A stretch of DNA of 53,211 nucleotides, counting the filler, from Basidiobolus ranarum (taxonomy: Eukaryota): NCBI GenBank assembly GCA_040143965.1. It is 3 parts of 3 records of this genome, joined end to end, with 100 filler letters (N's around TTAATTAATTAA, not from the genome) between each part and the next. Parts side by side here need not be neighbours in the genome. Positions count along the whole stretch, not along the records: positions 1 to 17,710 come from JASJQH010007171.1; 2 more parts are not named here. One strand, 5' to 3'. Position numbers and translations under genes: made by a program. The notes under the pieces were generated by a model. It had not been told where the DNA came from. It saw nothing but the letters and a program-made list of their open reading frames with translations, and made no database searches. Positions 1 through 47,800 of the stretch are shown in pieces. Numbering within the stretch: the first letter of the stretch is position 1; each line of letters opens with the position of its first letter.

Positions 1-44
1 CTTTGCTGTACAATGTATAAGTTTACTCAAGAATTAATGAACAG

Positions 45-266
45 ATGCCAGAGCCGCGCTGGGTTATTTCTATGGGCTCTTGTGCTAATGGTGGTGGCTA
101 CTATCATTATTCATATGCTGTTGTTCGGGGCTGTGATCGCATTGTGCCGGTTGATATTTACGTTCCAGGTTGTCCTCCTACCGCTGAAGCTTTGATGTAC
201 GGTGTCATGCAACTACAAAAGAAAATCAGACGAGGACGTGTTGCAACTATTTGGTACCGAAAGTAA
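45..266 (+). CDS. NDUFS7: NADH:ubiquinone oxidoreductase PSST/20 kDa Fe-S subunit, final exon (gene starts before the window)
   Basis: [50 protein letters not shown] is the highly conserved NuoB/PSST C-terminal half; preceded by splice acceptor acag (41-44); stop TAA 264-266. Confidence 0.97.
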
Positions 267-682
267 TACTACGGGTATTCTGTGGAGCGTTTTGTATCCC
301 ACCTCATCAACGTTGATGAATAAGAACATTTATAATGACGTTTTGGTTTGTACACTCAAGTAGCTCAAGGATAACCCATGTCTGGGTTTCAGCTTTACTA
401 TGTATTTAGTTTTGAATATAAGCCTTCATATCAAGAGTACTCATGTCGAAACGATAAACTGCGCTGAGCTTTTCAATATATAATCTCCCAATGATAATCA
501 AGATATGCTGATACTGAGATTTCAACGTTTCGAATTTATTAAAGATTTTAAATTAAAGATTCTATAAAACTAAGTATTAACGAATACTGATATTGCGTTC
601 ATCCTAGAGGCTTAGAACGTGGGTACTACATCGAATAAATGGATCAAAAATGAATTGTTCTCATACCTAACGCATCTCTTCC

Positions 683-2670
683 CTAATTACGCCTGGTGTA
701 TTTGCATGAAACAGGTGTTTGAGGAGTAACAAATAACTTGGTGTAATCAGGCTCAGGGAATTCTCTTCCAGGTACATTCTCGATTTCGAAGAGACGTACG
801 AGAGTTGCCAGAATAGTTTTGATCTGAACGTAAGCAAATGGCTCACCAATGCATCTATGACGTCCAGCTCCGAATGGAAGATAAGGATTTTTGGCGCCTT
901 TACCAGTAGTACCAAAGATCGAATCGTCGTCATCTTTCTCCGAACTGATATTGTTCCAACGACTAGCATTGAATTCCATAGGATTTTCGAAATGCTCCTC
1001 GGAGATTTGGGTAATAATAGGACTGGAGCAAAGGAAATGTCCCTTGGGTACCACTATATCGGATTTAGGATAATTGACAGCTTGGACTACTTTACGCATA
1101 ATTGCTACAATAGGTGTGTGCATACGAAGCGTTTCACGCACTAAATTATCCAGAACTTTACATTTGTTCAAATCATTGAAGTTAAGTGGCTCCAGTTCTT
1201 CTCCGAAAATCTCCTTTTGTTCAGCGTAAATTTGAGCACTAACAAATTTCAAAAATCAGTCAATTGGCTGACCATTGATAACCATTGTTTACATGTACTA
1301 ACCGAAGTTTAGGGTCGTATGCAATGTGCATCAGAGCCCAAGTTGAGGTAGCTGCACTAGTATGTTGACCAGCCATTAATAACGCAATCATCATATGAGC
1401 AACTTCCTTGTCGGTCATCTGGTGGCCATCTTTGTAGGTGGCGGTCATAAAATGCTGAAGAATGTCTTCATTGTTCTGGAAAAAAAGATTAGTAATGATT
1501 CCTACAAGCGCAAAATACCAAGAAAGTCAATTACCATATCTCCTTTTTGACGTCTATTCTCAATGATATTCAAGAAAATATTGGTTAATTTGATATGGGC
1601 CTCATCACGCTTTCTATAACTTGGAAGAGGAAGCCATTCGAAAAGGAAGTTAATGGGCTGAAAACCATTGTCCAAATCATGAAGTAGATGTGCAACTGTA
1701 GTCCAAGGATAGATTTGATACTTTTTAGAACGATCCAGAAATCTCTTATGTTAACAAAAAATATTACCTGTTTCATCGAGCTGAGAACGGATCTCTTTGC
1801 CCATTAGGCATCGGGAGGCAGTATTGATGATTAACTCAGCAAAGGCTACACTGATTTCCGCTTCGTCAGTAGTCTTATTCCAACGTCTGTTGAGGGTGAG
1901 GTTAGAAAACGAGGTGAGGAGATGGAAGGTACATATACAGATAATTACTTGAAATACTCCACAGTCTCCTCAACAATCATAGGAACGTAGGTTCTCAAAG
2001 CATCAAAAGAAAGACCCTCTTTGGCAAATCTACAACGGAAAGACTCGATTAGCCATCGCAAACTAACTAGGTGCCGTAGGAAGATGAAATACCGTTTTTG
2101 ATCCATCAGCATGTGGTTAGGACAGTCATAAACAACTCCCTCTCCGAATACGGGTTTCGTGAGAGGTCTGTATGCTTCTTCAGCATTGACATGGCTGTGC
2201 TTGGAATTTAGAACAAAGTTGTTTCCTTCAGTGCCAAGAGCATAGGTCATTTTACGTCCGAACATTAGGAAAGTGAAAACGTCGCCATACTAAATACATT
2301 AGTGGTGAATTTAATACTCTTCAATGAAATGGAAGATTCAGTCGATTAGCTTACCTTCTTACGGTTCTCAGTCAGAAAGTCCACAGGGTTCATCCCAAAG
2401 CTAATCATTGAGCCGATAAAGGGAACCCAGTATGGGACCATAGGAGGGGCATTCAGCTCTTTCTTACCGTACTAAATGTTGATAAATAGCAACAATGACG
2501 ATGACATTAATACACACTTCAGCATGTAACAAATAGGTAATGATAGTTGCCTTTTGATTGCACCAATCTGCTAGGACATAGACGATCAGCACACCAAGGG
2601 TGATGGTGAAGAAGTTGGTGAACTGGTGAACCGAGAGAAAGTTTTGAATGACATTTACTACTGCGCCCAT
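683..2670 (-). CDS. CYP51: Sterol 14-alpha-demethylase (cytochrome P450 CYP51); about 8 exons: 2551-2670, 2355-2471, ~2093-2289, ~1949-2029, ~1769-1886, ~1535-1695, ~1303-1475, 683-1238
   Basis: N-terminal TM anchor, PPMVPYWVPFIGS, AEEAY..LTKPVFGEGVVYDC (SRS1), I-helix MAGQHTS, ETLR (ExxR), heme motif FGAGRHRCIG; the predicted introns join the exons in frame. Confidence 0.97.
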
Positions 2671-4396
2671 AGTATCAGTAGTAGAGGATTAGAAAATGTG
2701 TGTGAACGCTTACCTGTCAACTCTACGTTTTTATTTTTGAAATGGTTTGCTCGTAGCTCTTACAAATTTGGAAAACACGAATTGATTGGATCGTGTCGAT
2801 GGGCCTAGTGCCTGGCCTAAGGATTCAAACTCCTATTTGGGAAGAAGCTGATAATGTATATTTTTGTTGTGTCTGATCTAATGATTCAACGGAACCAACT
2901 GTACTCTGTCAGTAAATGAGAAGTGGGCTAGATTTGGGTAATTGATTAGTTGCGTCCCTGCTCTGCCTTTTCCCCGCTTAAAAAGAATCTAGACAAAAAT
3001 AATGCATGAAGCGGAGATGCTCATGATTAACTTTATTGTGGTGGATTTGGAAGATTCTAGTATAATCAACCAGTTGATTGCAGTCTCAAATTGGGATAAA
3101 GCTAGCCAAACAGTGGAAAAACGATCAGAACTTCAATCTTAAATACTCTTGTAAGTGTTATTATTGTGAATCTAGATTCAGTTCGATCATTTCTTTTAAG
3201 TTTCCTGGAAACCCCCTAGATAAGAACATACCCCAAGCCAATTGTAAACCATTGAATATAATAGGGTATATTAAAAAGGTGTGGAGGTTGATTGTGGGGA
3301 TTAGAATGACTTCACGTTGATTATACCACAATATCGATAAAGCGTGGAATTTTACGGCCTCGACTACGTTCATGTATCAAGTCAACCTTGTGTTGGGTCA
3401 CCAAATAACCACCTAGAAGTGGCTATCGATTTCTGAGCAACATCAACCATTTAATTGTGGGTGGGGATTCTGTTGTTTCAAGCAGCTGTGAGTTCTAGAC
3501 AAACCTAATCTTCATTTTAAATATTCACATGTCAGATTGACGACTTAATATAAGAATCGGAATTTATTATCGTAAGCATGGAATATTTGGTGTAGATGGT
3601 ACAAACATGCAGAAATGTATAATAAACCTCAAGCTTGACTGGCCTTTGTGCCTAGTAATATATGGCATTTAGTACCTCTCACTTTATCTTCAGTATTTAT
3701 AGAATTTATTATTATCCTTTGATTTGAGAGCAATAGATATTCCGTTAAATACTACTCTTACTAAGCAAGCATCAAATCTTTAGAAGCTGAATAAAACGCC
3801 TTTTGTTAGACAAGTACCAACCTTTCATTTATGTATATTTCTCATCCACTGATAGACTGATTTCTAAGAATAAACGTCACTATATATTCATATGTATAGT
3901 GTCACCATCCAAGTGCATTCAGATATGTTGATGTTAGCTACTTGGAGATTGCCAGACATTACCATGTCAACAATAAAAAAATCACTTGAATGAAGTAAAG
4001 CAAGAATCGAAATAACACTTGAAATATAGGAATTGTCTGCTAGTGAAGAGTATAAGCAGGCAGATTTCAAGGTGTATGATATATCAGCTTCCGTCAGGTG
4101 CTAATTAAAAATAAGAACATTAGCAGTGGTTTTTAGCAATATTTCACTTTCTCAATGAGTACATTTCAATCAAGCTCACTTCGAGCAACAACCAATATCT
4201 CTCAAATCCATGTTCGCATCTTGTGGTGCTTGAGGCATGTATATCCCACGGGAAAGCATAAGCAAGTAGTTATCAAAGTTTGTTTATTTGATTACCAATT
4301 CCTGGTTTAATATATTTAGGGCCAGATTAATTGGGGGTCGACAATTGCATATGCATTTCATCATCAACCAAACCTCGAGAATGGTAATAATATATA

Positions 4397-4517
4397 CAGT
4401 GAAGCTGGGAAATATTGGTTAATTAACATCATTTAAATTTCTAAATTAATTGGGAAAATATTGGTTAATTAACATCATTTAAATTTCTAAATTAACCAAT
4501 ATTTCCCAGCTTCACAG
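4397..4517. mobile_element. MITE of Tc1/mariner type (121 bp, 28-bp TIRs, TA target-site duplication)
   Basis: Left TIR CAGTGAAGCTGGGAAATATTGGTTAATT (4397-4424); right TIR 4490-4517 is its reverse complement with one mismatch; TA on both sides; internal ~44-bp direct duplication; no ORF. Confidence 0.75.
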
Positions 4518-5388
4518 TATAGTATCCATATCCCACACTCAAATCATCCCGCCAACACTGCATCGTTAGCAGCTCCGAATCAATAATACTTCACGCAATC
4601 AATAGTTCACGCCCCTTCATCTGGCTGCATCTATTGGTTTAAAGACACGTCATCCGATGGACCAAATATGCTTAACTGTGTATGAAACCCTCGATGAGGC
4701 TATTTGTGCACTTCATAGTACACATTTGGTTATTGTTGATACCAACTTACCTGGATCCTGATTTGGTAATAAAGGAGTTTATTTAATAAGTCACGTTATT
4801 TCTTCTGAATTAGGATTTGTATGAGCCGTTGGCAGCTTCGCACATTCTTGTTAGCACTGACCAACAATTGGCGAGAGTATGAAATACAAGTATTCTCAAG
4901 CTAATTATTGGCATAGACAATATAAAGAAATTCGGGCGGGTGGTTGCTTAGTATCAAGCCATAGCTTCCAACTGTCAGGCACACGCTGTCTGCAACGGAG
5001 GAATTTCACTGCAGTCGCTGCGTGGCTTGTACATTTCGTGAGAGTAGAGATATCATTTGGTGAAAATCGAACACACAAATTACTGGGGAATGGATTAAGC
5101 CATGATCTACAGTGGTAATTTACCTTGAGTTCCATTAATGCTGAAACCAGTCTAGTCTTAGTCGAGCAGAGAGAGGGCGATTTACTAATCTTGGAGTCAA
5201 AATTACCAATGAAACGGTAATACTGCGAGATTAGGGAGTCAGTTGAGAGGTAAGAACCAACAAACTACTGAAATAGGAGTAATCAACATTTACAAGTTGT
5301 ATTTGGACTATCTTTGTCTTCTACTAACTACAAACACCCAACTAGTGCATAACAACTCAATACTTCAACTTTCTAGCCAGCAACAGAG

Positions 5389-6702
5389 ATGTCTGAGGTT
5401 TATTCTACCAACTTTAAGCTCAAGTGTGAGCCCAACACTATCAAGCCCTCTTCCATGGAGCAACCTTCGTTCCAAATGCCACTTACCTTGCGTCCAAATG
5501 CTTGCGTGATCTGTCTAACTTGCCTAACTTGTGCTGGAAAATACGGTTCTGACGATTGCCACTGTCCTGCTTCTGATATTCACTGGAATAAAAAAAGACT
5601 GGGATATAAAGTCGAGTTTCGCCGTCGTAGTATTTTACCTAGTAACCAAGTTTTTATGACTTGGTTTAGGGCTAACCTCTCCCAAAGATTAATCTGGGAC
5701 GAAACTTGTAAGGAGGTTAAACTTTGCATGTCTTGTAATTCGACATGTTGGAGGTGGGCTAAAGGTAGTACTTAGCTAAGTTTTATGGCATTCACCAAAT
5801 ATACTTACATTTTCCTCACTCATTCCAGTCTTCAAAAAAAGCAATCTCGCTAATGAACTGACTCCTGGAAGTAACGGGCTTCGTACCGCTCGATTCTCTC
5901 CTTTGAGAAGTATATCCACCTTTAGTTCAAGAAAAGATTCTGCCCAACGTACCCAAGGTTAAAGAGTGCTGTATATGATCATCAACCGCCCATTATTTTA
6001 ACGTGATTCGTATTAAATGTGAGTAGATTGTACTGATTTCTTTGCCGGCTCCTCTGTTTTATCCTTGAGAAATTCAAAGCCAAGGCTGTCGACAAGCATA
6101 AGGAGTTGTCCAGACCAATTTACTGCCGGGGAAAACCAGAATTTTTCGCCGATCTCAGTTCACAAATCCCTTCCTTTGGATATGGACACTCTGATGATGA
6201 CACCAACAAGAAGCACGCCCCCAGCCTTTAGCGAGAGTGACTCCGTATCCCAGTCATCCTCGCCTTCACCGCGACTGCAAACGCCTCCAAATGGAGAAAG
6301 TACCTTCTTAGTAACGTATGACCTAGCTCAATTGACAGCATCCGCTTCTCCTAAAGGTAGATATCTCATGACTTAAATTGAGCATCTATTGTGTAGTTTC
6401 TGACATAGTTTCACTCAGGAAAAACTCCACTGAAAACGGTTACTCTGCGTATGACGAAGAAAATCGTCAAAGATCGAATAGTAGTATCTCCGAAAATGAC
6501 ATTCAACCACCTAATACGACATGCAATACAATCCAACCTTCCCGAAGGAAAGCGCTATGTGATCAAGAGTATGGATGGACAATATGAATATGTACCAGAT
6601 GACTTTGTATCTGAAACGTTCTACGGACAGGAGCATGTAGACCTTAGTCTTGATGATGAAGCAGTACCTTCCATTAGCTTGGATGACTTCGATATGTGTT
6701 AA
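5389..6702 (+). CDS. Hypothetical protein: Cys-rich putative zinc-binding N-terminal domain, Ser/Pro-rich linker, small globular C-terminal domain; predicted exons 5389-5764, 5829-5958, 6027-6356, 6419-6702
   Basis: CVICLTCLTC..CHC and CMSC motifs in exon 1; three phase-1 GT-AG introns of ~60-70 nt link the ORF-track fragments into one frame. Confidence 0.7.
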
Positions 6703-9700
6703 GTAATACTATGGCTTGGTATGTAGTATGATAAACCCAGGAGTTGTATATCGTTCTGTATATATGTTTTGCCACTTGTCCTCTCCAATTTCGCGATTCC
6801 CTTTACGAATCTTTACTCCGAAAAATCATCTGCAGATAAATGTACATAAATTGTCTTGGTCTCGCTAATACGGTGTATTTTTATGAGGTTGGCTATTTTG
6901 ACGATAATTTTATTGTAGGAAGGAAATTCGATTGTTTTTCTTCTAAATTTGTACTCGAAGTCATCATTTGCTGTAGCGTTAATTCAAGAAACTTCATCGA
7001 TTATATCGATATGTTCTATATTTTCATTGATGCCAATAAAGCCCTGATTAATCGACTAATATATGTAATATAGTAAGCTTGTAACATTCTATTTCCTGTC
7101 TGGAGATGGTCTCAAGTGAGGGTTGTTTTATCAAATCGAATGATTGAAATCTTCGTACATACACCAGGTGCATTGCTGCCATAATAATGAATTGCTTAGT
7201 ATCCAAAGGGGATATTTTCAATTATTGGGTCAGCAAACAATTGTCATCGATACAGGTTTTCTTTTACGTCTTTGCATATGGTGTGAATCTTATTGACTTT
7301 GTCCTTGCTTCTTGTGGATTCTATCAGGGAATAGAAATAATGCATTCAAAAAATTCACAAGCTGTGCGCAAACTCTACATTTGCTTGGTACCCAAAGAGG
7401 CCCTGATGCCCAAGTTTTAGATGGTTCAGGAGTATATATCCATAGATTTGATCAGTGTGGTAAGCGGCCAGTAATGACTCCAGTAGTGTTAGACGTTGTA
7501 TAGTCTGAAAGGGAAAATCATTAGTGTTATAAGTGTTTCACACCTAACTCCTAATATTCTCCTAAATAACTTGCTTTTTGTGATAGATTGTGCTTGGTAA
7601 GGCCGATATCCATTAGCCACCCCTTATTACATAGCGGATTTTTATATTGCTGATTTGGAATCTGCTGTTCAATGTGATACTCTGAGGCTGATTGTCTTAC
7701 AGGTTCAAAAGTTGGTCATTATTCACAAGGGATGGCAAGTTTCTAGCGGGTTCTCTCATTACTAATATGTTGTGAAGCAACTGCAGAATATCTTATGATA
7801 AATTATTTAGTATGATTGATATTGTGAAGTCATCCATAAAAAAGCTATGATATAGCGGTGGGAAAAACTGAGTCAAAGCGCCAAAAGGCCAGAGTAAACA
7901 ACCATTGACACTTGGTTACATCGTGAAGGAATAAATTTATAGGATAGTGCTAATACGGTGGTATATTTTGAGTAATATTTAAACATATCTGCGAAATTTA
8001 GAATATAAACAATATGGAAATACTAATATTACTATGCTGCTTGACCTACAAACCTACAAATAAGTAATCAGAGGCTATAATTAACAGTCTTCACTAATGA
8101 GAATCTGTTGCTTTATAGGTATAGAGGCTTTATGTGAGCAGTAATCGACCTGACTGGGTTGCGGCAACAGTGGTGGGTATCAGTTCATGTTAGAACCGGA
8201 ATATATGCCGACTTACTTATGTTGTGATTAACTAGCCTGAAAGTGAGTGACAAATTTCAATCTAAGAACTCTCTAGTAAGCAATAGGTAATAGACACAGG
8301 TTAACCAAAAACAGTCAAACGTAGTTTCAAAATGCTAATGACTATTAAACCGTTAAATGCTATCAATAACTGTAGTTTTATTCGAGTTTTCATTGATATA
8401 TAGTACAGAATATAATACCTATATTGATTTGGGTGGCTGAATTCAACACCGTGTGGCACCACACATAAAGATAGCTAAATATCTCGGGTATATATCAGGT
8501 AGGAGTCGCAAATGACGAGTATCGTTCCCATTGAGCTAAATCAATACTTCCTCTAAAACACTCGCAGATAAATATTACCAGTAATAGTAGCTAACAAGTG
8601 TCACTAAAACCAGCCATCAGACTAAGAGTTGTTGAATTTTTTAGATTACTATATTCGATATCATATATCCAGTTGTACTTGACTCAGTAAACGGAAAAAG
8701 TTTAGTGAACTCCAAGCTTCATCAAATTTGACATATAATACTGTGATCTATATGTATTCTAAAGTCACATATGGTAACTGAGGATACAATTTAACTTTTA
8801 CTGTGTTGTTACTAATAAATAAATGCTGTTGTTCTCGAATTCTCCGCGACTCTCCACATTCATATGGCGAGTGAGTCTTGGTTAGGAGGTAGACTAGATT
8901 GATTGATATATAACAGAATATTTACCTCAGCGGAAAGAGCCATTTATGTAGAAACAACCAGTAGCGAAGAGGTATATCTAATTCTCTGGTTAGATATGAA
9001 TAATCAAATGAGTCAGCCTGAGATATCAAGCACTGTATAAGCATTCGTGAGGTGAAAGATAGGGAACAATTAAGTAAAATGCTGAACATCCAAGTGCACC
9101 TATTTGAAACAATACATGGGCAGTTTCATGTTGGTTGATGAGAACGAAAATATGGTCTTATAAACATAGGATTATGATACTATGAGTATTATGAAACCGG
9201 TTAGACCAGTTCTGCCACTTCTGACGATCAAGGATGGAGTGCCATTAATATGGGGGGAGCAGCTATAATTAGATATACTGCAATATAGCTGGAAAAGTCG
9301 AGTTGAATTAGGCCAAAAATGGTGATTTATAACATAACTCCACCGGAAAGACGAAGTTGACAGGCGCATAGTGAAGTGAATGAATCAGAAGATGTTTCAC
9401 CAAGAATGGAAGAAGTAGTCCATATTCTCATCACAGAAAACTACTTAGGGTTAGGCTTCAGTGTGCTTATCCAGAATTCTCGCAATTGCCAAGTAATCCA
9501 GAGGGTCAGAATTTACGCTCATTGAATTGAATTAGTATCTACACGCTCCAACTGGTATTGATGTAAACTAGAGTGTGAAATCCGGTGGTTGGTCATGATT
9601 GAATCAGACCCACCGGACTATCTCACATTGAAGAAATATATTCACTAAAACTGAAGGGCTGTACGTCTTTCATTTGACCGCATATTGCACTTCCTCTTTC

Positions 9701-10736
9701 GCCCTTAAAACGAAGCCAAGGCTGAATGAAGCCTTTGGCAGATGCATTTATATGAATTGGTCATACTTGCTACTGTAAAGAGTCACTACATCGTTATATT
9801 ACTACCTGCAGTAGTTCATAACGAATAGTTGGACAACGCTTAAAATGGCCTCATAAGGCTTCACATTCATTTAAAATCATCTGGTGACTCCACTTACAAT
9901 ACCGATAAGCCACCATAATTCTATAATGTCGAAGTTTTCTCAACTATTGGAAGTTGCATTCTGAGGTCTCACATATTAATAAGAAGCCTAGTAAGTGGGG
10001 TATATCCTTACTTGGCATATTATGATGGCTCAAGTTTCACTACGTTGATGTTGGCATACTTTGTAGGGTTCCATTCTATACACTTTAATATGCAAAATAT
10101 GAAGATGGCCCTATGGCATCGGATGCCTCCTCCTATCAAATGTAGGTTAAATAGAGTGTCTACTGCTTCATCAATAGGATTTTCTTGTGGAGTATGATAT
10201 CAGTGATCCTCTTACTCCTGAGATTAAATTGAGACGTTTTGTTGAGTATCTTTATTGCTACTATTAGGGGCAGTGGGACGAGAGCAGTCTAGGCATGCGA
10301 ACTAAATGAGAATTAGGCAGATTACTGACAATATGAGGATGATATTAAGATTTCCAATGTTTTGCCCTCAAAGTGTATTTGTAAATTTTGCAATGCTACG
10401 ATCAATTCTAATCAAGCAAGTTTCTTTATCTTCATAGTTCAATTAAGCCTTGAATGTGCACTTCCTCAGGGGTGTATAATTGAGTGAAATTCACTAGTTG
10501 AGTCGCTTATATAACGTAGACATGCTACCTTTTAGCTTTCAACTCAGGGCAGTTACTCTGGATCTTTAAAAGTTCCAAGTTTGCAAGTTAATAATCACAT
10601 TCATTATCTGTCCAACTCTCCAAGGAATCATAACTCTTGGTACCGCTTATTGTGTAGATTAGAATGTCAGGTATGATTGGCAAATTAAATGAATATACTA
10701 CCTTGTAAAAGATGTAAAGTTAATATTTTGTCTGTT

Positions 10737-11852
10737 ATGTTTGCTTTAGATCAAACTTCGATTGCCTGGGTGACGATGGTTGCCGATGTTTTCATCTCCA
10801 TGTCCTACATGGCCATCCCGATCGAGATCTTCTTCTTCCAACGTACCCTCACCTTACCTCTTCCTATGCTATACAAGAGTGTCTTACTTCTCTTCGAAGC
10901 ATTCATCACCGCATGTGGTGCTACTCACTTTGTAACCATGTGGAATCCTTTCTCGAACACTGATCTCGCTTTGTGCATTGTGAAGGTGATCACTGCAGTG
11001 GTCTCCACACTCACTGCTGCCCTCTTGATCCGAGTCTTTCCTAAAGCTTTCTCTTTGCCGGCAAAGGCAGCTTGGTTGGAAGAAGAGTTGGGATCTCACA
11101 TGCGACATGAACAATCGCTTCGCATGGCCAATGACCTTCTCCTCAAGTTTCGCAAAGTTACCCAACATATCCGTAAGACGCTCGATACGACCTCGGTATG
11201 TCAAACGGCAGTGTTTGAACTCTCAGTTGCATTGGGAGTTGGATGTGCCATTTATATGAAAGAAGGTGATATATATACCTGTATTCGCGAGGATTATAGG
11301 CACCTCAACGATCAATCACTGCGTCACTCAGATAAAGATATTTTTTGGCAGAAGATTGATATTTCGACGGAGAATAAAGTGATCAACAGAATGACCACCC
11401 TATCGTATGCCTGCTGTCTAAACAAACGCGACCTCTGTGATATGGTCGGAGACGGTGTGAACATACCATTCAAGGCAGCAATGGGAGCTCGCTTTCAACT
11501 TGGCGAGGCCAATTCCGGATTTGTGATGATTTATTCAAGTGACGAGACTTGGAGTTTACCTGAACAAGAAGTGGAGCTGTTTGAGGATATCGTAGGTCAA
11601 ATCGAAATCGCCTTACAGCAATCCGCTCAATTAAAACATGAACTTGACGGGAAATTCAATGAGACCAAGTCCTCTGAGCTTACTAAGGTTGAGGAAGATA
11701 ATGCGGTATTTAGGCTATCAACGCTACGACAAAATACCACTCTTTCCTTGCCACCACCACCTCCATTTTCACAAAACGAAGAAAAAGACGATGAGGTTTA
11801 TAATATGGAACCTCTGAATGGTGTCGTGGATCGAAATTCCCCGTTTCATTGA
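10737..11852 (+). CDS. ETR1-like ethylene receptor homolog: 3-TM ethylene-binding domain + GAF domain + poly-Pro tail, no histidine kinase/receiver (intronless; alternative in-frame ATG at 10689)
   Basis: DVFISMSYMAIPIEIFFF, LLLFEAFITACGATHFVTMW and KVITAVVSTLTAALL parallel plant ETR1 TM1-3 (DFFIAIAYFSIPLELIYF, FGAFIVLCGATHLINLW, KVLTAVVSCATALML); TQHIRKTLD...EVELFEDIVGQIEIALQQS are the GAF boundary helices. Confidence 0.92.
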   Translation: MFALDQTSIAWVTMVADVFISMSYMAIPIEIFFFQRTLTLPLPMLYKSVLLLFEAFITACGATHFVTMWNPFSNTDLALCIVKVITAVVSTLTAALLIRVFPKAFSLPAKAAWLEEELGSHMRHEQSLRMANDLLLKFRKVTQHIRKTLDTTSVCQTAVFELSVALGVGCAIYMKEGDIYTCIREDYRHLNDQSLRHSDKDIFWQKIDISTENKVINRMTTLSYACCLNKRDLCDMVGDGVNIPFKAAMGARFQLGEANSGFVMIYSSDETWSLPEQEVELFEDIVGQIEIALQQSAQLKHELDGKFNETKSSELTKVEEDNAVFRLSTLRQNTTLSLPPPPPFSQNEEKDDEVYNMEPLNGVVDRNSPFH

Positions 11853-12527
11853 TATTTTTCTCTCACCGACTATTGTGAGTTCTAGTAGTCTATAATTTAA
11901 TTTGCTTCATCATTCTGTAACAAAGTAATAAGGTAAAATTCATTTTAGCAATAGATTCCCGAAATTAGTATATTCATATCGAGATTTCATTGCTCCACCA
12001 GAAGCGGTTTGGATTCCCGCACCAAGAACCCTTGTACCCTTTACCCTATCATAGTTGCTAGTCAATGTGAATCAAGTAAGCTTACCAAAGTGATGATGTT
12101 CTGGTCCAATCCATTGATTTGTTATTATCTCCGATCAAGCTGATATTTTTGATGAAGTGTGTGCTATTCAAGTTATTAAATATTTTAAAAGATTTATTTT
12201 ACTTGATAGTAGATAGACAATGTTCTTCAAAAATGGACAATCTGAACCAAGTACCACGCTCTTCTCAAATTGTGAATCTGTTTTGGGTTGAGAGTTCTCT
12301 AATGTACAGAACCATTGTTGTAAATGAAGGTTGGATGCATTGGCATGAGGCCTTTTGATATGCACAAAAAATCCGATATTTACATGAATCTCGAAATTAT
12401 GATACATTTTTATATATGCAGAAAGTGAAAATGCGTCAAGAATCGTCTGAAAAAGGGAGGTTAGAGGTCTTCTCAAAGTGTTGTGGTACATTCATCTCTC
12501 TAATCGTATGGAGGATCAAGCCTCATC

Positions 12528-15500
12528 TTAAGACTTGGATTTTTTAAATCTAAACTGATCCAGCTTACTTTTGCTTTTCAATGGTAATGCGTCTGTAGGC
12601 ACATTTGTCGAGGGATTACTGATGCGTGTAGTTTCTGTGGTAGGTGGCCTGTGTTTTTCGGTTTGGTTTAGCTCTTGGACCTCTTCGGTGGGATGACCTC
12701 CGGTTGATTTACGCGATGACAAGATCTTGGCCACCTCACGCCAATTACCAAATTTGACATTTTTTGGAAACGAAGGGATCTCCTGTATTACCGATTTCTT
12801 TCGCACATTCGAATCATACCGCATGGTCTGATGGCTGGCCAGTTTCGACAAATGTAACTCTTCAGTTGGTGAAGAATTATGGAAGTCCAAGGTAATGTCA
12901 TCTGAAATATCAGAAACTTCTATATTTGGATGCCTCTTTTCCGATATCGTGCTCTGGCCCAAGCGTTGTGGAGAATGCTGATATTTGGATCTCAATAGAG
13001 ATATACTGGTCGACGAGTCCAAATGTTTTCGGCTCTCGGATAAATCATGTCCGATAGACGAACTTTTCTTGCCTGGTAAGTTGACAGATTGTTGTCCATT
13101 CATAGGCTCAAGGTTTTCCTGGAGCTGGTGTGGATCTCCAAGGGCCGCCATCTCCTGTTCTATGGTATCATCGATAAAGATGTCATCATCAGATTGGGAT
13201 ACGTTAATAGTTACGGCGGCATGAGGGGTAGAAGTATAGCTGATCTCGGGGCTTTGAGGAATGACAGGATACTTTTCATTGAACTCTATATCTTCCAGAT
13301 CTATCTCTATTGGGGCCGTCGTACTCGAATTGGGACGACCTCTCACTTTGATATCATATCGGTCATTTACGGGGCCACCATCATAGCCTTGCAAAGCTGT
13401 TGATGAAGATGAATGTGAAGTGGATGGTTTAGCGCAAGTACCATCATCAAAGATACCCTCTATACCTTGCATAATCATGAAATCATCTGCGTCGTCTTCA
13501 AGGTCCATCAACTGCGGGAAATTTTCTTCGATAAGAATTGACTGCGTTTTAGTTGATTTCGATTGAGCAGGCTTACTGTTTCCTTTTAATACTCTTGGTT
13601 TTTTCAGTGGGAGGTGGTGAGTTTTTAACGGAATAACGTCACTCATATTGAGATGCTCTTGTAATTGTAACCCATACAGATCTTCTTCATCATTGATAAA
13701 TCCAAGTGTTTCCATTCCACTCATTATATTAACGAAATCGATGGTTCGCTGAGAATGGGGAACTGTGTATGTCGAGGTAAGCGTGGTTTGATATTTGGCA
13801 AACTTGGAGAGGGACACATTTGAACTCTCGATCCTACTAAGGAAACGAATGTATTGTCCCTCAATGTCATCGTCCATATCTTTGATCATATGTACATCTT
13901 GCTCAATTGTTTTTCGACGTGACTTTTTAGCCACTTTGACTTGATATTCGGGGATAGTCAGGGTTTCTTTAACGCACACTGGACTAACATCCGCAGGCAA
14001 TAACTTCGGATTCCCGTTAAAGAGAGTAATCTTAGCACCAGAAGCGATGGCACGTTGGATCAACTTGTAGGAATTTTGAGATTGCTTGTACATCTGTTCT
14101 TCTTTCCCTTCCGACAATAACATACAAATTCTGCCTTGGCGCTTACGACCAGTACGCCCCATTCGTTGTAAAAGTCGAATTGGTGAGTTGTGAGAATCGT
14201 AGCATATGATTAGATCCACTTCTCCAATATCTAAACCTTCTTCGCCGATCGAGGTGGAGACGATTACATTATACCCGCCTTCTTTAAACTGTGCCAACAC
14301 TGCTAGTTGTTCCTTTTGCGAAAACCCTTTCTTGGCTTTTTTGGAGGCTTGACCTATAAAAGACATGGGTCTTATCATAGGTGAATGGGTATCCAATGCT
14401 TTAACGATCTCCTCCACGGATTCACGATATTCAGCAAATATCATGACACGAGTTTGTCTTTGGGCATGAACTTCCAAGCCATCATTATCTGCCTCATGAT
14501 TCACAAAATAATTCACGATATAAGAGACCAGTTTCTCCAATTTCGGATGACCAATGAATGTCGGCTCATTTAGCATTTTTTCGATACGAGTCATAAGATC
14601 CACAAAAGTGGGATTTTTGAGTAAATCCTGACGGGCACGAGATATCTTTTTTCCATCCTTAGCTTCTTGAACAATCCCATAAAGTGCGTTGTAAAACGGA
14701 CGAATCCCATGTTGACGTAAAAGGCTATAAGCATGGGAGAGCGCGAGACAAATACCAAAATCAGCTTCGCCAATAGCGTTTTGATCAGGGGGAGCAGCTG
14801 CGGAGCCGCTACGGAATTTGTTGCGCGCCAAGATAAGCATATATTTCGACACCTTTGACGGGTCTTTTTCCCAAATCGCCTGCATTCTGCAGAGACGAGA
14901 TGTGTAAACCTCCATACAGCTGCAGAACTGTTTACAAATCTCGTTGATCTTACTTGTTAAAGGGACCACGATGACATCGATTTTTCTACCATGAGTATAT
15001 TTTTGAATATCAAGCGATTCTTCTGATCTAAGCTCAATATGAGAGATCATTAAATTGTTGACAACATCTTGTACTGTAGCCGTATCTGTCCCTGGTGTAG
15101 CAGAAAGGGCCAACACTCGAAATAGGGGATTTTTGGCGGAAAGTTCCCTGATAACCACACAATTTGCTTGTTCACCGCGGGCTCTATGTGCTTCATCTAC
15201 CACCAAACATACAATATCTTGAGCAGGGCATGTTCCACGTATCAAATCATTTTGTAGAACATGCGGTGTTAAGAAAAAGATTCTTTTCTTGAGCCAAGCG
15301 ACTTTTCTATTTTCAGGTGATATAGCTCCGGTGATTTCGACAGTATCCTCTTGAGAGATTCCGCATATATTATGACACGCTTCAATTTGTTGAGCCACTA
15401 AGGGTCTCGTGGGCGCCATAAATACAATCTTCGATTTAGGAAACCAGCGATAATGATTATACATCACCACGGCGGCGATAAATGTTTTTCCCAAACCAGT

Positions 15501-16251
15501 TGGAAGAGATACTAAGGTGTTTTGAAATAATGCTTTGGATACAATATTAAATTGATACTCACGAAGTGGATAATTCATAGGATACACCCATGTATTAATT
15601 GTATCTGGATCACAGTTGGAAGGGTCCAAAGAAGAGTCCGGTGTATACTTTATAATGGAATTCGATCCACCTGACATTTTCTGTTTAAATGATACAATCT
15701 TAGTAAAATGTGATAGACAATTATCAGAAAGTTATACGTACAAGTGGTTTTTTGCTCGCTTTGATAGAAGTGGGGGAGTTCTCCTTTTCCATGGCAAACA
15801 TATTCCAAAGAGTTTTTTGGTTTCCAGTACTAGTAGTGGTGTTTGTACTCTTTTTCTTATTATTAGTTGGTTTGGGTATCGTTCTATTACGTGAAGTTGG
15901 TGGATTGTGTGACATTCCCTAAAAAGCAATTTAATATAAAAAGTTTAAGGACAGTACAACATCCATAGGTAAGTAGAATAAATTTATAAATACAGGAAAG
16001 GATGTTGAATTGCTGAAATCCGAATCAAAATTGTTGGACCCATTCTTAGGATAAGAAGGTTTGGAAGCGGTTTGATGCGAATGCTGGGGAAATGTTGTTC
16101 TCTGAGGCTGTACTTCATTATCATACGCTGTGCCGTTTGAATAGTCTTTTCCTGGATTAGAGGAGACCGCCTGCTTCTCCATTTGGTCAACAGCAGCTAA
16201 GAAAGCATCATCCAAGGGTAGATCATCAAAGTCGTCAAATTCATCTGCCAT
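12528..16251 (-). CDS. MPH1: ATP-dependent DNA helicase Mph1/FANCM/Fml1 family; 3 exons approx 15994-16251, 15743-15918, 12528-15680
   Basis: WVYPMNYPLREYQFNIV, Walker A LPTGLGKT, DEAH box VVDEAHRA, LSATPG, TSIGEEGLDIGEVD, QRMGRTGR; two phase-0 GT-AG introns connect the upstream acidic exon (MADEFDDFDD); low-complexity C-terminus with no ERCC4-like domain recognised. Confidence 0.95.
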
Positions 16252-17325
16252 GACCAGAGTGTATCAATTTCGAAATACGTCAAGAAGAAAAACTTGGGAA
16301 AAGTTAAAAAAAGAAGAGTGACAAACAGGTGTGTTTACTTGGTTAAAAGCACAGAAATCATGTTATGGTCGCATAAAGCTCGTCGAATTGTTTATTTTTT
16401 ACATTTACAGTCACTATTGTGGATATTTGAATTTGATCACACTTGTAGAGGTAGTTTAGTGAATGTTTTGTAATTTAGTGCAGCTATTTAACCAAATGAA
16501 ATTTCATGCTAATTTCTTAACGTATCGATTGGCTTAAAAGAAATATTTTTGAAAAATCAATATGACAGAATTCTACTTTACTGCGGTTGAATGGGCAATT
16601 TGAATTGATACGAAACTTGATGGCAAGAAGGATCAAAATTAATATTCCAGTGCCTAGTGATGAGCTAGGCCACACTTTATGTTGTTTCTTCTCAAGATTG
16701 TATATGCTTTAAAGAATACATGTTGGCGGTAGCATTTACAGGCTAAATACCACATCCAGAATTCAGCCATGAATCATGCTAGTCACCTCCGTTTAAGCAA
16801 AAGAGTGTCCAGTTAAACTAGCACCAACAATTATGTGAGAAGTCACTTTAGATGCACATAGACTGGTATCACCAAAACTGATAGAACAAATGAATACATA
16901 GCTTACGACTGTGCCTAAAGTGAATCTCAAGTCAGATCATTAGTCTACAACAATGCCTCTCCCCAGAGACTACGAGGACTCCAGAATCGATTCAATGAAA
17001 TCTCAAGACATTCCTACCCTTGTCGCTCTAATCACTTCCATGTGGAATCATTGCGTGATAGATTGTGAGCGCATAATTATTCTTATGATTGGAATTCATC
17101 ATCTTAATCTGCTGTTACAATGGCATATTCCTAGATAGAATTTATTTGAAATAAGCTATTTTCGAGGTGTGTGAACGACATCGAGATGATTGAAGTGTTC
17201 ACTTAAGATCATTAAATAATTATATATCGATTTGTACAGAAAATTGTAGGAACTTACTCCACCCTCAGAGTTTATGTCACAGATTTAAAGATGTCCACCT
17301 TCTCCAGGAGATCAAAACGAGATAA

Positions 17326-17710
17326 TCAGTTCCAATACTTTGGTTCCATGTCGTATTCTTCGTAATCTTGTATATCTTCACTTGAAAACGGAGGCGGTGG
17401 TGGAGGTGGCGGTGAGGAAGATTTAATGACCGGATGTACTGCACTTTGTCTTAAGGATGATAATCCTTGATCACTGAGATATCTTTGATTTCTCACATTA
17501 TGTGTATAACTTGACATTGGTAATTTCTTGGAGTATTCGTTTTGAAGTTGAGCGGATTGTTGTAATGCAATCTCAATTTGACCTACGATATCCTCAAACA
17601 GCTCCACTTCTTGTTCAGGTAAACTCCAAGTCTCGTCACTTGAATAAATCATCACAAATCCAGAATCAACCTCTTCAAGTTGAAATCGAGCTCCCATTGC
17701 TGCCTTGAAT
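17326..17710 (-). CDS. Second ETR1-like paralog, 3' part only (end of GAF + poly-Pro tail); 5' part lost at contig end
   Basis: FKAAMGARFQL..SGFVMIYSSDETWSLPEQEVELFEDIVGQIEIALQQSAQL is nearly identical to the protein at 10737-11852; ends PPPPPPPPFSSEDIQDYEEYDMEPKYWN-stop. Confidence 0.9.
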
Positions 17711-17810
17711 NNNNNNNNNNNNNNNNNNNNNNNNNNNNNNNNNNNNNNNNNNNNTTAATTAATTAANNNNNNNNNNNNNNNNNNNNNNNNNNNNNNNNNN
17801 NNNNNNNNNN
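17711..17810. other. Artificial contig-joining spacer
   Basis: 44 N + TTAATTAATTAA (stops in all six frames) + 44 N, exactly 100 nt, identical to the spacer at 35483-35582. Confidence 0.97.
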
Positions 17811-18317
17811 ACAGTGGAGCCTAACGAGACTTTCAGAGCTGCCGGTTGGGGACAAACCGAAAAGGTAGTGAACTCAAAGCAATTACGTGAGGTTCAAGTT
17901 CAAACCACTCCGTTCTCCGTATGTGCACAGTATGTAACTAACTTCAAGGATTACAACGGTTCTCAAATTTGCACTGGAATGACTCCTGGTCGAGACACTT
18001 GTGGTGGGGACAGCGGGGGTCCGCTATTTCGGTCCGAGGATGGTGTGTTGAAATTAGTAGGACTAACCAGCTATGGTGCCTTTAATCCTAATGATCGGTT
18101 AAAATGTGGAGGAAAGGGTTCGGTTGGTGTTTACACTCATGTGCTATCTTATATGGAATACATTGAGGGTGTAACCGGACTGAGCTTCAACGAACTCACC
18201 TCTTCAGAGTTTCGCCATCAAGCAGGGTACGTGGTGTCAGCTTTATCCACGAATTCACTCGCAAAGTCCATGGTTCCTCTTCTAGTAGCTTCAGCAATAT
18301 TCATGTTCAAAGTATAG
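17811..18317 (+). CDS. Trypsin-like serine protease (S1A), C-terminal part; 5' end cut by contig boundary
   Basis: AAGWG, QICTG, DTCGGDSGGP (catalytic Ser; Asp at the S1-pocket position), LVGLTSYG, GVYTHV; hydrophobic C-terminal tail. Confidence 0.93.
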   Translation, partial: TVEPNETFRAAGWGQTEKVVNSKQLREVQVQTTPFSVCAQYVTNFKDYNGSQICTGMTPGRDTCGGDSGGPLFRSEDGVLKLVGLTSYGAFNPNDRLKCGGKGSVGVYTHVLSYMEYIEGVTGLSFNELTSSEFRHQAGYVVSALSTNSLAKSMVPLLVASAIFMFKV

Positions 18318-29700: not shown

Positions 29701-29973
29701 CTCATGACTACCAAATGTGGAAGTGAATTAATTATAGATCACTCAGCCAATGAGCTCCCCATTAATTGTGGCGTATATAACAATGACGAGGGGCATGATT
29801 CGGATGTCTTTTTTCTCACACAACCTAGCTTGAATTTTTGCTTCTACTTGCTTGTTTACTCAAGTACTCATCGTAACTAACTTCACTTCAAACCTCAAGG
29901 GTGTGTGTACCCCCCATCGTATCAAATATCGATTCTTTCTTCAAGTAGTCTTTAAATATTGCAAACGAAAAGC

Positions 29974-32664
29974 ATGAATTTTCGGCATTTGTTGTTATTT
30001 TGGATATTTAAAATCTCATTAGTATGGTGTCAAATTACAGAAATTGTTAGGGAGAATGCTTATTCCTTGGATGATGGCCGGACCATCTGGAATGTCGCCA
30101 AAAGAGATCCCACTATCTGGGCAGCTGGCATCGACATAACCCAACCTGCTGTCACAGACCGACTTAATGCTGCAAGTCAAAATGATACAGTTTTTGTATT
30201 TGACCAAAACCGTACAGCCATCTTCTCAAAGGACGTTCCCAAAGTCGTTGAGGACAGGGATTCTCAATGGGTCTCCCTACCTAACGGAGACTTGGGGTAT
30301 TTTTACGTCGGTTTTGGTACTCGTACTCTTTATCTTCAAATTTTCACTGCTAAAGGTGATCTCAAGGCCGGCCCTATTGCATACCAGGATGTCTTTTGTT
30401 TTTCTGCCGTTGCCAGCACTCAACCAGTGGATGGAAGTAACTACATTACTGTAGCTCTTGTGGCTAATCAGATTGCAAACCCTACACTTCACGTGATGGT
30501 TTTAAACCCTGATGGAAGTCAAGTCAGTGATACCACTTTAGATACCGCATCGTTTGACGTTACTTCGTTGAATCATAAGATATATATAACCTCGGCCGCT
30601 GATGGTAGTTTCTTGTTAACCTGGCCTGATAAGACTCGTGACAATTACAAGGCGATTCGTGCCGCGTATTATAAACCAGGTCAACTGGTATCGAAACCCT
30701 TCATTGTTGTTTCTGCGTCAGTGAACAGTCTTAGCTTCCTATCCATTACGAAGTGCGATTCAATGAAAATTGGTGATGGTTATTATTGTATATACGACGA
30801 AGTTACACAAGTTGCAAATTCTTATGCACGCACTCCCTATATCGCTGTATTTACAACCTCTGGATCTATGTATATTCCTCCCAATGCTCTTGCCACTAAT
30901 GCTACCACTGTTGCAACTTTTCAGGGAACTATAGGAACTGGGCTTCCATATGGTGGACTTTTGCTAGCACCAAGTGGGACGACCTTGCTATATAATGCTA
31001 ATTGGAAACTTCAGACATTTGATAACCAAGGATTTATACTCTCCAATCCAAATATTGTGTTACCAAATAACACCGTAATATCAGTAGTTAAGCAAACCAA
31101 TGCTCAACCTGGTGATTGGATGATTGGAAGTGCGTGGAAAGCTACTACTCTCAACCCTACCAAGTTATTTACTGAGTCGAAGTATGGCAATAACCCAGCC
31201 ATTTTGTCAGCATCTCCTGCTCTTGCTGGTCAGGTTCCGGTCAATACAGATTCCATCAAAATTAATTTTAGCAAAGAGAATTTCCGTAATGGCTTTGGTA
31301 ATATTACAATTTACGACGCTGATTATCCACAGTATCCACGCCAGTTTATTACCATTGTACCAGGTACCGCCAATATTGGAAACACCTATACAACCAAAGT
31401 AGCCAGATACGCCTTTAATACCCCAAATACTAACTACTATATAACTGTGGATGGTGGTGCTTTCCAGAGCAACATCGAGGAACCTCTCATGGGCATCAGA
31501 AAAGGGATTTGGGCGTTTAAGACTGGTGCTGCCACCGACACCAGTGATAAATCTGATATTGTACTTCAAATCCGTATTTTAAATGCAATAGTTGCAACTA
31601 GTGATACTGGTGCTGTGTCTAGGCAGCTCGCAACCGAGCTTGCTCAAATTCTTCCCATCGAAAGTGAGCGTATCTCAGTGCGTCATTTGCGTAGTGATGG
31701 TAGTAGCGGCGACATTTACCAAATTACCTTGAAGCGTCTGCGTGGTAGTGGGAAGCAAACCGCATCTAGCTTGGCTCAGGATCTTCAATCCATGGTGAGC
31801 GATCAATCAGCATCCTCAGGTCTACTTGTTGGGACTACAACTCTAGCCATTGATCGTGGATTTGGTGCAGTTGTGGAAGAAAATGTGTTTTCGTCCAACA
31901 AATGGGCTCTTATTGGCATTCTTTGTGGTATCGTTGTGATTATTGTGGCGTACATTGTTATGTGCCGTCGTTTCCCAGATAGTGACAATATCATGTTAAT
32001 TGTGTTGGCCATTTCGTTGTTCGATTTTTTCTCGGATCTGTTCTTCATCGTCATGAACTCCGGAGATGTACCATCACTTCGTGTCCCAAGCATTATCTTC
32101 TTTATTGTACCATTTGCATTCAACATGGTTGCTTCCACCGCAATTATCGTCAAAGAGGTATCTACCAACTCATCATTCCATGAGTGGTTCTCTCGTAGAA
32201 CGTTAGTAACCAGTGCTGTCTCCGTGCTAAGTGCCACCAACCCTTATCTCCTACACCTACTAAAGAGTAAATTCGCTGCTATCAGCGATTTGGATGCACC
32301 TATGTCAGAGAACGTCTCCAAATGGATTCTTTATTGCACTGCTGTTGATATTATTGTTGAAGACATCCCACAACTTGTTATTCAGGTAAGAGTATTGATT
32401 GTTTCTTGAATGAGGAATGTGGGCACTAATTTGAACTATCTGTAGACTATGTACAAAACGCACAATGGATTTTTCAAGCTGGCACCATTCTTGTCGCTAG
32501 TCTCTAGTTGTTTGGGGATTGTAATTTCCATCATTTCTCATGTGTATACTCATTTAGCACACAAGAACGGCCCTAAGAACATCGCCCGTAAGGGTACCGA
32601 CTTCTCGGGATCTCACTTCCAGATCAATGATACCGTAGAGCATAAAAGATCCGTTCACCAATAA
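29974..32664 (+). CDS. Large membrane protein: signal peptide, ~620-aa ectodomain with a Big_5/SbsA-type Ig-like domain, multi-TM C-terminus with XK-like motifs; exons 29974-32385 and 32446-32664
   Basis: Long ORF; MNFRHLLLFWIFKISLVWC signal; SPALAGQVPVNTDSIKINFS...GNITIY...NTNYYITVDGGAF...WAFKT Ig-like pattern; several hydrophobic helices with DFFSD and EDIPQLVIQ; phase-0 intron gtaaga...tgtag. Confidence 0.85.
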
Positions 32665-35482: not shown

Positions 35483-35582
35483 NNNNNNNNNNNNNNNNNN
35501 NNNNNNNNNNNNNNNNNNNNNNNNNNTTAATTAATTAANNNNNNNNNNNNNNNNNNNNNNNNNNNNNNNNNNNNNNNNNNNN
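35483..35582. other. Artificial contig-joining spacer
   Basis: 44 N + TTAATTAATTAA + 44 N, identical to 17711-17810. Confidence 0.97.
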
Positions 35583-43202: not shown

Positions 43203-43265
43203 GATCTGCCTAGTTGTCCTATTGAGGAGTAAATCACCTCGATTCTTCCATCATCATCCACTTTC

Positions 43266-44865: not shown

Positions 44866-47800
44866 TCATTCGACTTTGTTCGCGTGTAATGTTTTGGCAT
44901 ATTCTATTTTAGAAGTGTTGCGTTAATATAATGGACTATAAAACTCACCCATTGGAGGATGCGAGCGAATAGAAAATGTTCACTTACTTAGACCGCATGA
45001 ATTACATAGTGTTCTTGGTCCCAATGGGCCACGTCGCCATTCAGGGGAGTCTTTCCGTTGGCACATGGTGCAGCAGTTGTTGGTTGGTGCAGATCTCTTT
45101 CTCTAAATGGAGAATTAATAAAGATTCCACATTAACTCTTTCTGTAAAATAACTTACCCGACGCTTGTTCGAGTTCTCAAGAGTGTCCAGCTCTTCTCGT
45201 AGATTACGGTTCGCCATTTTCAGTTGATGTAACTCATACTGCCAATTGGTTTTGTGATCAAGATTCAGTAGTGAAAACACATTGTCTTCACTCGTAGAGA
45301 CTTTATTGGTCTGTGGTGATGGCGCGGATGAGTCATTCGAGCTATCAGAGTTTTCGTCAGAACGATCGTGCTCTCGGGTTTGCGATAAAATAAATGAAGG
45401 TTTTCCATCTTGCCCAACATTTCCTGGGTAAAAAGTGCTAATGACTCCCACATATTGCCCTTTCTTGTTTTGGATGCTGTGCGTTAGCTTCACAGTGATT
45501 CCTTGTTCTGCTTGTTGAAATGCACGAGTAAGCGCTGTGGTTCGATCGGATTGTACTAGCTGATAAAGCGATGTCCCCTCCAATTCAGATGGTATGTGTC
45601 CAAGCACGTCTTGGCATGCATTAGTCACGAACAGGATCATACCATCCAAATAGAGTTTACACCAAAACTCTCGATCGTTGAAGCCACCACAGGTTTCTAT
45701 AATCTCCCGGGATAGTTTATACACTGGTCTAGGTCGTCCAGTAAGGATAGCGTACTTCCTACTTTTACTTTTATCCAGATGCAGACGGCCTTGTGCCTCA
45801 AACCACATATAGCCAGAATTCTTGCGTTTAATTCGATAAATCATACTAATGGTGTCATGAGAGGCCTCTTTCAGCTCTCTTAAGACTGGGACTAGATCAC
45901 TTGGTTCGCAAATGTCTGAAAGTGAGGTTCCGACTAGCTCTCCTGGTCGATATTCCAAAATATTTTCACAAGATGGTGAGCAGTACAGGAAAATCCCTTT
46001 CAACGAGAGAACATGGACGAAATCATCGGATTCTTCCAGCAGCATCGTATTCCACATTCTTGTAGCAACGTCCTGATCTACAGACTCAGAGACTCCGAGA
46101 ATTTTGTAAATCTCATTCGAGATTGGGCATTCATCAGTGTTAGGACGAGTCAATGACTGACCAAACTCCTGCGGGGATGATTGGAGAAACCCTACATAAA
46201 TATTAACACATGCCTCATGATTGTGAAAAATGAACAATCATGACGTACCTGAATTAAGAATTGAGCTAATTGGATGCGATCTAGAAGGGAAATTCTCAAT
46301 ATAAGTTCCGTCTAATAAAATCCAAATTAGCATAAGGGATTGCCTTCAAAACTCAACAGTAGAAATATACCTCGGATTTTCCCAAGAATTTCATGAGGCT
46401 GTTCGACCAAGTCCTGAGGGAAATAAGTGATTAGTTGTATATCCAGGTTGTTGTTTTATCCAAGCTCACGCTTACCACTTGGAAGCCGACGAAATGTGTA
46501 ACTTCTTCGCCATGCATGGATATTGGGATGATGGTCAACAAATTAACAAATGGCTACATCGTAATATCAGCGTTAGTATGCTTTGAACCACATGGGGCTG
46601 TCAATAATCGAAATAAACTCTATCTACCTGACCCCCTTTCTTGTAGTTCACAATAGAAACTTGGATTTCTTTGCCTTGGAGTATATAGTTTTTCATATTG
46701 TACACTGTGGTGTTGTCGGTGTGGCGTCTTCGTGATCCGAGAGTAACTTGACCATCCGGCGCTTGAAGAAACCGACAATTACGTCCGATAGTTTCGTGGT
46801 ACTGATACCCTGTCAACCTTTCGAAGGATTGTGTCGCATATACGATAGGAAAGTCATATTGACGAGCATCGGCTTTAGGAAGCAATGTGTAAGTATGGAT
46901 GATCGTCGGTATTGGATCCAATACGAGATAACTTACAAACAACAAAAGCACAGCTCATATCTACGGGGCCAATGTTGATTTGTGGATTAGACCTGAGGAA
47001 AGAGGAAATTCATACGATTAGTAGTGGACCAAAGTCAGTGTTTACATAGCATATACTAACCTATTGGCAATTTTCGACTACAAAAATAGAATAACATTAA
47101 AATGACCTATTAGTGAATATAATTCGAGAAGCAGCGCAACGTAAAATATCGAAAAGGGCCCATTTGGTGGTGAGATCGGTGGAATATGAACTTTCGTAAA
47201 AGCAATCCTTACCAGTATAGTGATCATGTCAAATCCGGTTGTAGAATACAATCCAGAAAACCCCAAGGAGTCGCCTCCGCAAAGCGTATCTGAAATAAGT
47301 GACGTTAGTGATGTTGCCTCCCACTGTCTGTTTCCTATGAGTAACCAACCTGAATGTGGATCTCGATCAGAATATCCTATTGGATCCACTATATCCAGAT
47401 TGAGGAGACCCAATTCGCCTCCTACACCGTGATCGGCACTCTCAGTGAAGTGCGTGGTCTGGATAGGGCTGAACATGATATTTGGGATATTCATGACGTT
47501 ATTATGTGTTTCGGTAGGAAAGTCACCTCTCGATGTTTCCGACGAGATTCCAGAGCCACTACAATTTTGAAAAGATATTAGAATCAAAAAACCGATGCCA
47601 AGAATTTGGGAAATTAAGAAATAGGGTACAAAAGATAAAATATATGGGATAGGATTCTTGCAAGGCCATTCTCTCTATTTCAAACTCTAACCTTTGGCGA
47701 GGCTAATCATGTCAACTGAATCATACTTTCTAGTGACCGAGCGAAACAAACAGAACGAAAGCTTTGCTAAAATTAAAAAACAGTTATAAACCGAGTACTT

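Follow-up and report, generated by a model that had tools for sequence, protein, structure and literature searches.

Conserved ethylene-receptor homologs without a kinase half flank MPH1-type helicase genes in Basidiobolus ranarum

The receptor locus

The stretch of DNA analysed here, a window of 53,211 nucleotides from Basidiobolus ranarum, includes a gene for a short ethylene-receptor homolog (copy A) that lies beside a helicase gene. The window joins separate contigs, with spacers of 44 N, 12 bases and 44 N at 17711-17810 and 35483-35582, and contig C7171 accounts for positions 1-17710 only, so genes located past 17810 are not necessarily close to the receptor in the genome. The reading frame of copy A is open at 10737-11852 on the plus strand, and its start is probably the ATG at 10664, which opens a 7-nt first exon (10664-10670, +) followed by a 79-nt GT-AG intron (10671-10749, +). 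The spliced product of 369 aa is identical to P0002 (KAK9716904.1), a record labelled Basidiobolus ranarum, and a 7-nt first exon with an intron of 70-79 nt recurs, splice sites intact, in all three N-termini seen in the genome.

Copy A comprises an ethylene-binding domain of three helices (residues 7-105; 10761-11057, +), a GAF domain with flanking helices (residues 127-299; 11121-11639, +) and a tail of 73 residues, here called type A, that runs to the stop codon (11631-11852, +) and is delimited by alignments and low pLDDT. A gap of 675 nt (11853-12527), in which a profile search found no kinase or receiver remnant, separates this stop from that of an MPH1/FANCM-type helicase gene on the other strand (12528-16251, -), recognized by its Pfam DEAD, Helicase_C and FANCM-MHF_bd domains, with an upstream exon read from the sequence. 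On the far side of the helicase gene lies receptor copy B, inverted and cut by the contig end, of which the end of the GAF domain from residue 243, a type-B tail and a stop are present (17326-17710, -). A first-pass annotation of this DNA had described three helices with the ethylene-site residues, a GAF domain, a tail of about 70 residues and a stop some 680 nt from a convergent MPH1 stop, and each of these elements was borne out.

Several other genes lie in the window. Cytochrome P450 exons, presumably CYP51-like, occupy 683-2289 (-), and a fragment of a trypsin-family protease lies at 17811-18317 (+). An 817-aa open reading frame at 29956-32409 (+) is hydrophobic at its N-terminus and in several C-terminal segments; it has no Pfam match at E 0.001. 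A multi-PAS gene with a LOV-like motif (45041-46954, -), which we take to resemble white-collar-1, has three C2H2 zinc-finger genes close by, at 43233, 51008 and 52354.

The N-terminal helices match Pfam ETR1_N with 76.7 bits (cut-off 27; E 1.8e-21), and the ESM Atlas gave an ETR1_N+GAF cluster (0.97), which contributes nothing further. In a residue alignment all eight site residues match, namely D15, Y22, I25, P26, I55, C58, H62 and K81, encoded at 10785, 10806, 10815, 10818, 10905, 10914, 10926 and 10983, respectively. They correspond to Asp25, Tyr32, Ile35, Pro36, Ile62, Cys65, His69 and Lys91 in ETR1 numbering, for which the reference was a plant ETR1-like protein, P0037, rather than Arabidopsis ETR1 itself. 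Tyr32, Ile35, Pro36 and Ile62 are counted among the ETR1 site residues with known roles. The functions of Asp25, Cys65, His69 and Lys91 are treated in PMC10266040, the available text of which describes the ETR1 counterpart of Lys81 as a proposed signal transmitter and not a copper ligand. The same eight residues are intact in 58 of 70 aligned relatives, and keeping them is ordinary for the ethylene-receptor family. Cys4 and Cys6 of the plant receptors are absent, there being no cysteine before residue 58 in the alignment with P0037. Conserved site residues do not prove the identity of a ligand; ethylene is probably the ligand of copy A.

Structure prediction fills in the remainder of the protein. 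The AlphaFold2 model (mean pLDDT 87.6) places helices at residues 2-35, 42-65 and 74-145; a sequence search of solved structures with copy A gave no match at E up to 1. The GAF domain falls under its Pfam cut-off (13.5 bits against 22.4), yet in the model it is unambiguous by predicted fold: the best fold match is a GAF domain (Z 16.3, rmsd 3.0, 159 aligned, residues 127-299), and the best Foldseek rows are GAF-containing proteins. The type-A tail contains a run of prolines and a Y-x-x-E/K-P motif. It stands where the signalling helix and the phospho-His box used to be, and pLDDT drops to about 50 past residue 331. By eye the tail could plausibly pass for what is left of the signalling helix of the kinase, an idea that was rejected as unproven: similarity was not detectable, only one of nine tails beat all 200 shuffles and the best score was 1.5 bits.

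A two-copy model covering residues 1-332 scored 0.45 as a homodimer, whereas the best of three controls scored 0.00. Of the solved homodimers from microbes, 21 of 30 reached the mark, as did none of 23 single chains and 17 of 29 eukaryotic homodimers, but only 1 of 7 eukaryotic homodimers without an older solved relative reached it, so the score may reflect solved relatives already known to the predictor. Contacts agree between runs to at least 77%, with pLDDT of at least 69, and the predicted interface is made by the helices and the linker, with Cys58-Cys58 at its centre and among the tightest pairs.

Copy number, selection and origin

A protein query of the B. ranarum contigs returned six matching stretches, which amount to four receptor copies. 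Copies A (10664-11852, +) and B (17326-17710, -) make up an inverted pair around MPH1 in the window, and two further copies surround a second MPH1 on contig C8155. The N-termini of this second pair are probably those at the ends of contigs C424 and C7017, to judge from the contig ends and from the presence on C7017 of a homolog (76% identity) of the gene at window position 5377. Reading frames are open in all four copies, as far as assembled, and each of the four C-termini ends in a tail of about 68-73 residues before its stop. In the related species B. meristosporus five receptor proteins were found, all of 338-363 aa. The assembly contains residues 46-136 a single time, so C58, H62 and K81 are seen in one of the four genomic copies, and copy A may be a collapsed consensus over this segment.

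The copies show a mosaic of relationships. Sensors are closer within a locus than across loci (92.6% versus 75% nucleotide identity over codons 243-296), and the N-termini on C424 and C7017 are 98.4% identical in nucleotides, whereas the tails group by type, A or B, regardless of locus and species (SH-aLRT 100 in a tree of nine rows). Homogenised sensors combined with two persistent tails are the pattern of gene conversion, which on this sequence evidence would have acted in the sensor.

The whole block from 5377 to 16251 is duplicated (on C7017 and C8155), with synonymous sites saturated, as in many kinase genes of this genome, and the duplication of block and kinase genes is consistent with an old genome duplication or a hybrid origin. 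Between the duplicated genes C7017 carries an uninterrupted 501-aa open reading frame (L014:4769-6274), with no such frame at that place in the window. It reads, we presume, like a bacterial-type alpha-amylase, and horizontal acquisition is possible.

Between duplicates, the GAF codons 137-296 differ with pN 0.098 and pS 0.85, a ratio of 0.115 (95% 0.075-0.162), and helix 1 with pN 0.069 at pS 0.77 over 38 codons; a codon model on three sequences gave an omega of 0.049. The MPH1 core, as a benchmark, has pN 0.113, intact kinase duplicates have pN 0.036-0.265 (8 rows), and the GAF of an intact GAF-kinase has 0.172. The receptor sensor is under strong purifying selection, as tight as that on intact kinases, the values being long-term averages within one genome at saturated pS rather than measures of present constraint. 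Same-type tails are conserved to the stop more weakly, with pN/pS of 0.34 and 0.27. Neutral decay, which the first-pass annotation had proposed to check by dN/dS, is thus argued against by an omega of about 0.05 among genomic duplicates, and copy A is very probably a maintained functional gene.

That said, sensor constraint does not name a ligand. The protein might use a copper centre to sense a gas or alkene other than ethylene, or serve as a copper or redox sensor or as a passive ethylene sink, readings that taken together are rather unlikely. Five cysteines in the GAF region, kept in all six Basidiobolus proteins checked but only partly in relatives, would suit a role of this kind, but all eight site residues are kept, including Lys81 with its proposed transmitting counterpart in ETR1 (PMC10266040, in the text available), and a constrained GAF domain would be superfluous in a sink. 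It is quite improbable that the receptor conducts cations (Ca2+), as a channel or part of one, and could for that reason dispense with a kinase. Rice OsERS1/2 are reported to pass Ca2+ in an ethylene-enhanced manner (PMC13261662, in the part available), and the predicted dimer has six helices; however, this is a single report, and the activity it describes required Cys4/Cys6, absent from copy A. Binding of ethylene by a maintained receptor remains the preferred reading.

The relatives of the Basidiobolus proteins bear on how the short form arose. In a sensor tree of 22 rows picked from the 70 of alignment A4, they are sister to proteins of Conidiobolus, Neoconidiobolus and Entomophthora with 92/95, just under the starred mark; deeper branches are weak, and the grouping is the same in a second tree. 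All three Entomophthoromycotina proteins have a His-less kinase remnant and no receiver, and full hybrid kinases are retained in Rozella, Blastocladiomycota, Entrophospora and Amoeboaphelidium, so that the short Basidiobolus form is best read, from these sequences, as a derived loss of output domains. Entomophthora muscae itself has two 576-aa homologs, P0013 and P0160 (KAJ9061474.1 and KAJ9082166.1), with all eight site residues in P0013; this species is said to lack ethylene-receptor homologs in the available part of bioRxiv 10.1101/2023.12.22.573025, and strict insect parasitism is linked to ethylene-receptor loss in that of PMC5285503.

Stepwise loss of this kind, from full hybrid kinases in Rozella and Blastocladiomycota through His-less remnants to none in Basidiobolus, could also be taken for gene erosion, in which the short gene is a relic on its way to disappearance, as read in the accessible portion of PMC5285503, and the B. 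meristosporus copy P0005 does have a degraded tail. An omega of 0.049, frames open in four of four genomic copies as far as assembled, splice sites intact in three of three N-termini and the retention of four and five copies in two species make erosion very improbable, and the selection data argue against that published reading.

Absence of a kinase half and of a full-length receptor

A kinase-receiver profile was built from 12 relatives, and scores a control kinase at E 2.5e-95. It found no match in six frames of window positions 1-17710, of C8155 or of the fetched parts of C424 and C7017, in agreement with the earlier claim that no spliced kinase or receiver exons lie beyond the stop. At the duplicate the receptor stop is 294 nt from MPH1. 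HisKA with its phospho-His, HATPase_c and receiver were matched by none of six full Basidiobolus proteins and were absent from the flanking DNA; the domain search that the first pass had suggested accordingly gives ETR1_N above its cut-off, GAF below it and the three output domains missing. These observations support copy A as a real kinase-less receptor homolog, neither pseudogene nor missed-exon artefact.

The search for a full-length receptor covered an assembly of 13,754 contigs. An ETR1_N family search and four protein queries matched the short copies only. HisKA gave 25 matches in the genome, spread over 20 contigs other than those of the receptors; receptor helices were found at none of these 20 loci in the stretches fetched (best E 0.64), and none of 13 open reading frames from them matches ETR1_N. 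Two weak ETR1_N matches, each with E of about 0.9, were treated as noise: that on C729 is off-frame among short open reading frames with no receptor frame, and that on C192 has E 0.33 or worse by local profile. Several kinase genes are cut by contig ends before their N-terminus (C1943 and C1241, for example), and absence of a full-length receptor is therefore likely, not proven.

Protein databases gave a similar picture. A profile search, in which 20 of 147 newly returned proteins were identified, including all 18 with E up to 1e-30, returned no long protein named Basidiobolus among those 18, and one long match among them, P0025, falls outside the clade in the sensor tree. A search of longer proteins with a single-protein query gave one match, from Allomyces, and is weak because it missed Rozella and others; one with alignment A3, which spanned proteins of 1557-4445 aa, told nothing.

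The first-pass annotation had offered, as one possibility, a modulator or decoy of full-length receptors in the same cell, together with a genome survey for such receptors. In that survey only the short copies carry the helices, so that a decoy would be left without a target. A fragmented assembly, with kinase genes such as those on C1943 and C1241 truncated before the N-terminus, could hide one, but ETR1_N and the four queries find short copies only, 0 of 20 kinase loci have the helices and the 18 strongest protein matches add no long Basidiobolus protein; the decoy is hardly tenable. Least probable of all from the sequence, to a nearly negligible degree, is an annotation artefact whose transcript splices onward to kinase exons, given the profile-negative contigs, the 294-nt gap at the duplicate and same-type tails conserved to their stops.

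Possible signalling and comparison with known systems

A maintained kinase-less receptor that binds ethylene would have to act through something else. We give roughly even chances to a dimer that binds Cu(I) and ethylene and passes its signal in trans, by way of GAF domain or tail, to a candidate separate partner. In the lineage of Basidiobolus, an ancestral fungal ethylene-receptor histidine kinase would have been stripped of kinase and receiver, leaving a maintained, membrane-embedded dimer; Cu(I) would be loaded at Asp15, Cys58 and His62, ethylene bound, and the change relayed by Lys81 and then helix 3 to the GAF domain, which, the tail, or both would control another protein. The likeliest kind of partner would be a hybrid histidine kinase encoded in the same genome, much as the GAF domain of rice OsERS2 binds the soluble kinase MHZ1 and inhibits it (PMC6981129, in the portion available). 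Of the earlier proposal, signalling by protein interaction survives as the best guess; its decoy component lacks support.

Possible outputs encoded in the genome include the 25 HisKA matches on 20 contigs and two Hpt matches, and there are four P1B-ATPase matches over cut-off, of whatever metal. C422 (L015:4204-5901) and C1209 (L016:3306-4973) carry a pair of compact soluble GAF-HisKA-HATPase-receiver kinases, which would be the first to screen as putative receptor partners. They lend no support to the idea of a split gene with its kinase half elsewhere: each has its own GAF, with no match to the receptor GAF profile. RTE1 is needed for N-terminal signalling in Arabidopsis. A search for it gave no match here, and the same search matched none of 14 controls, so it shows nothing.

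The kinase-less architecture in this genus is already published (PMC5285503 and bioRxiv 10.1101/2023.12.22.573025, as far as their text was available). In 2017 Herivaux et al. reported Bm|388937| of B. meristosporus as a truncated ethylene receptor homolog and spoke of 'gene erosion'; the 363-aa sequence given there is, as read, identical to P0011. This protein (ORX82043.1, 363 aa) has the architecture and length of copy A, with 90% identity over residues 12-136 and 82% over the GAF, but a type-B tail only 32% identical to that of copy A. The accessible text of PMC5285503 names one B. meristosporus copy and holds no discussion of copy number, selection or paired layout. From the 2023 preprint (in part) come two Ancylistes genes without any kinase region; by their description the A. 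closterii homologs have, like copy A, helices with the essential residues and one GAF domain. Its authors propose an OsERS2-like role in which the GAF would control another kinase; Basidiobolus copies may figure in its Tables S4/S5. The accessible portion of PMC6324907 has no mention of Basidiobolus, and in the literature searched, with most subscription journals outside it, no paper dealt with how many copies these Basidiobolus genes have, with selection on them or with their function. With architecture and GAF hypothesis both in print, the surprise is capped. New here are the finding that all four copies found in B. ranarum and all five found in B. meristosporus are short, with no full-length receptor found, and the sensor constraint, the inverted pairs around MPH1, the homogenised sensors and the two tail types.

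Among fungal relatives, the Entomophthoromycotina ETR pseudokinases (the Conidiobolus CcHHK3 type, Neoconidiobolus and Entomophthora) are 33-44% identical to the Basidiobolus proteins but, at 576-626 aa, include a dimerisation helix lacking the His and a remnant that resembles an ATPase; group XVIII hybrid kinases, unlike copy A, have HisKA with phospho-His, HATPase_c and a receiver. The plant ETR1/ERS receptors share the ethylene-binding domain and GAF with copy A, whereas natural ones keep a kinase-like domain and Cys4/Cys6. Engineered etr1(1-349) signals in Arabidopsis, and the components of such N-terminal signalling remain to be identified in plants, where signalling by this half without the kinase is still an open problem (PMC4238421, in the text available). 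The plant precedents are less apt, and plant tests confounded, because full-length family members are present in the same cells. A bolder reading, and an unlikely one, is that all ethylene perception in Basidiobolus is kinase-less, as if etr1(1-349) occurred in nature and full-length receptors were missing. Two alternative proline-rich docking tails, on one sensor kept uniform through gene conversion, would then replace the kinase and direct the gas signal to different non-kinase partners. In comparison with plants, a culturable soil-and-gut fungus in which only sensor+GAF receptors are detected would be a clean test system for signalling by the N-terminal half.
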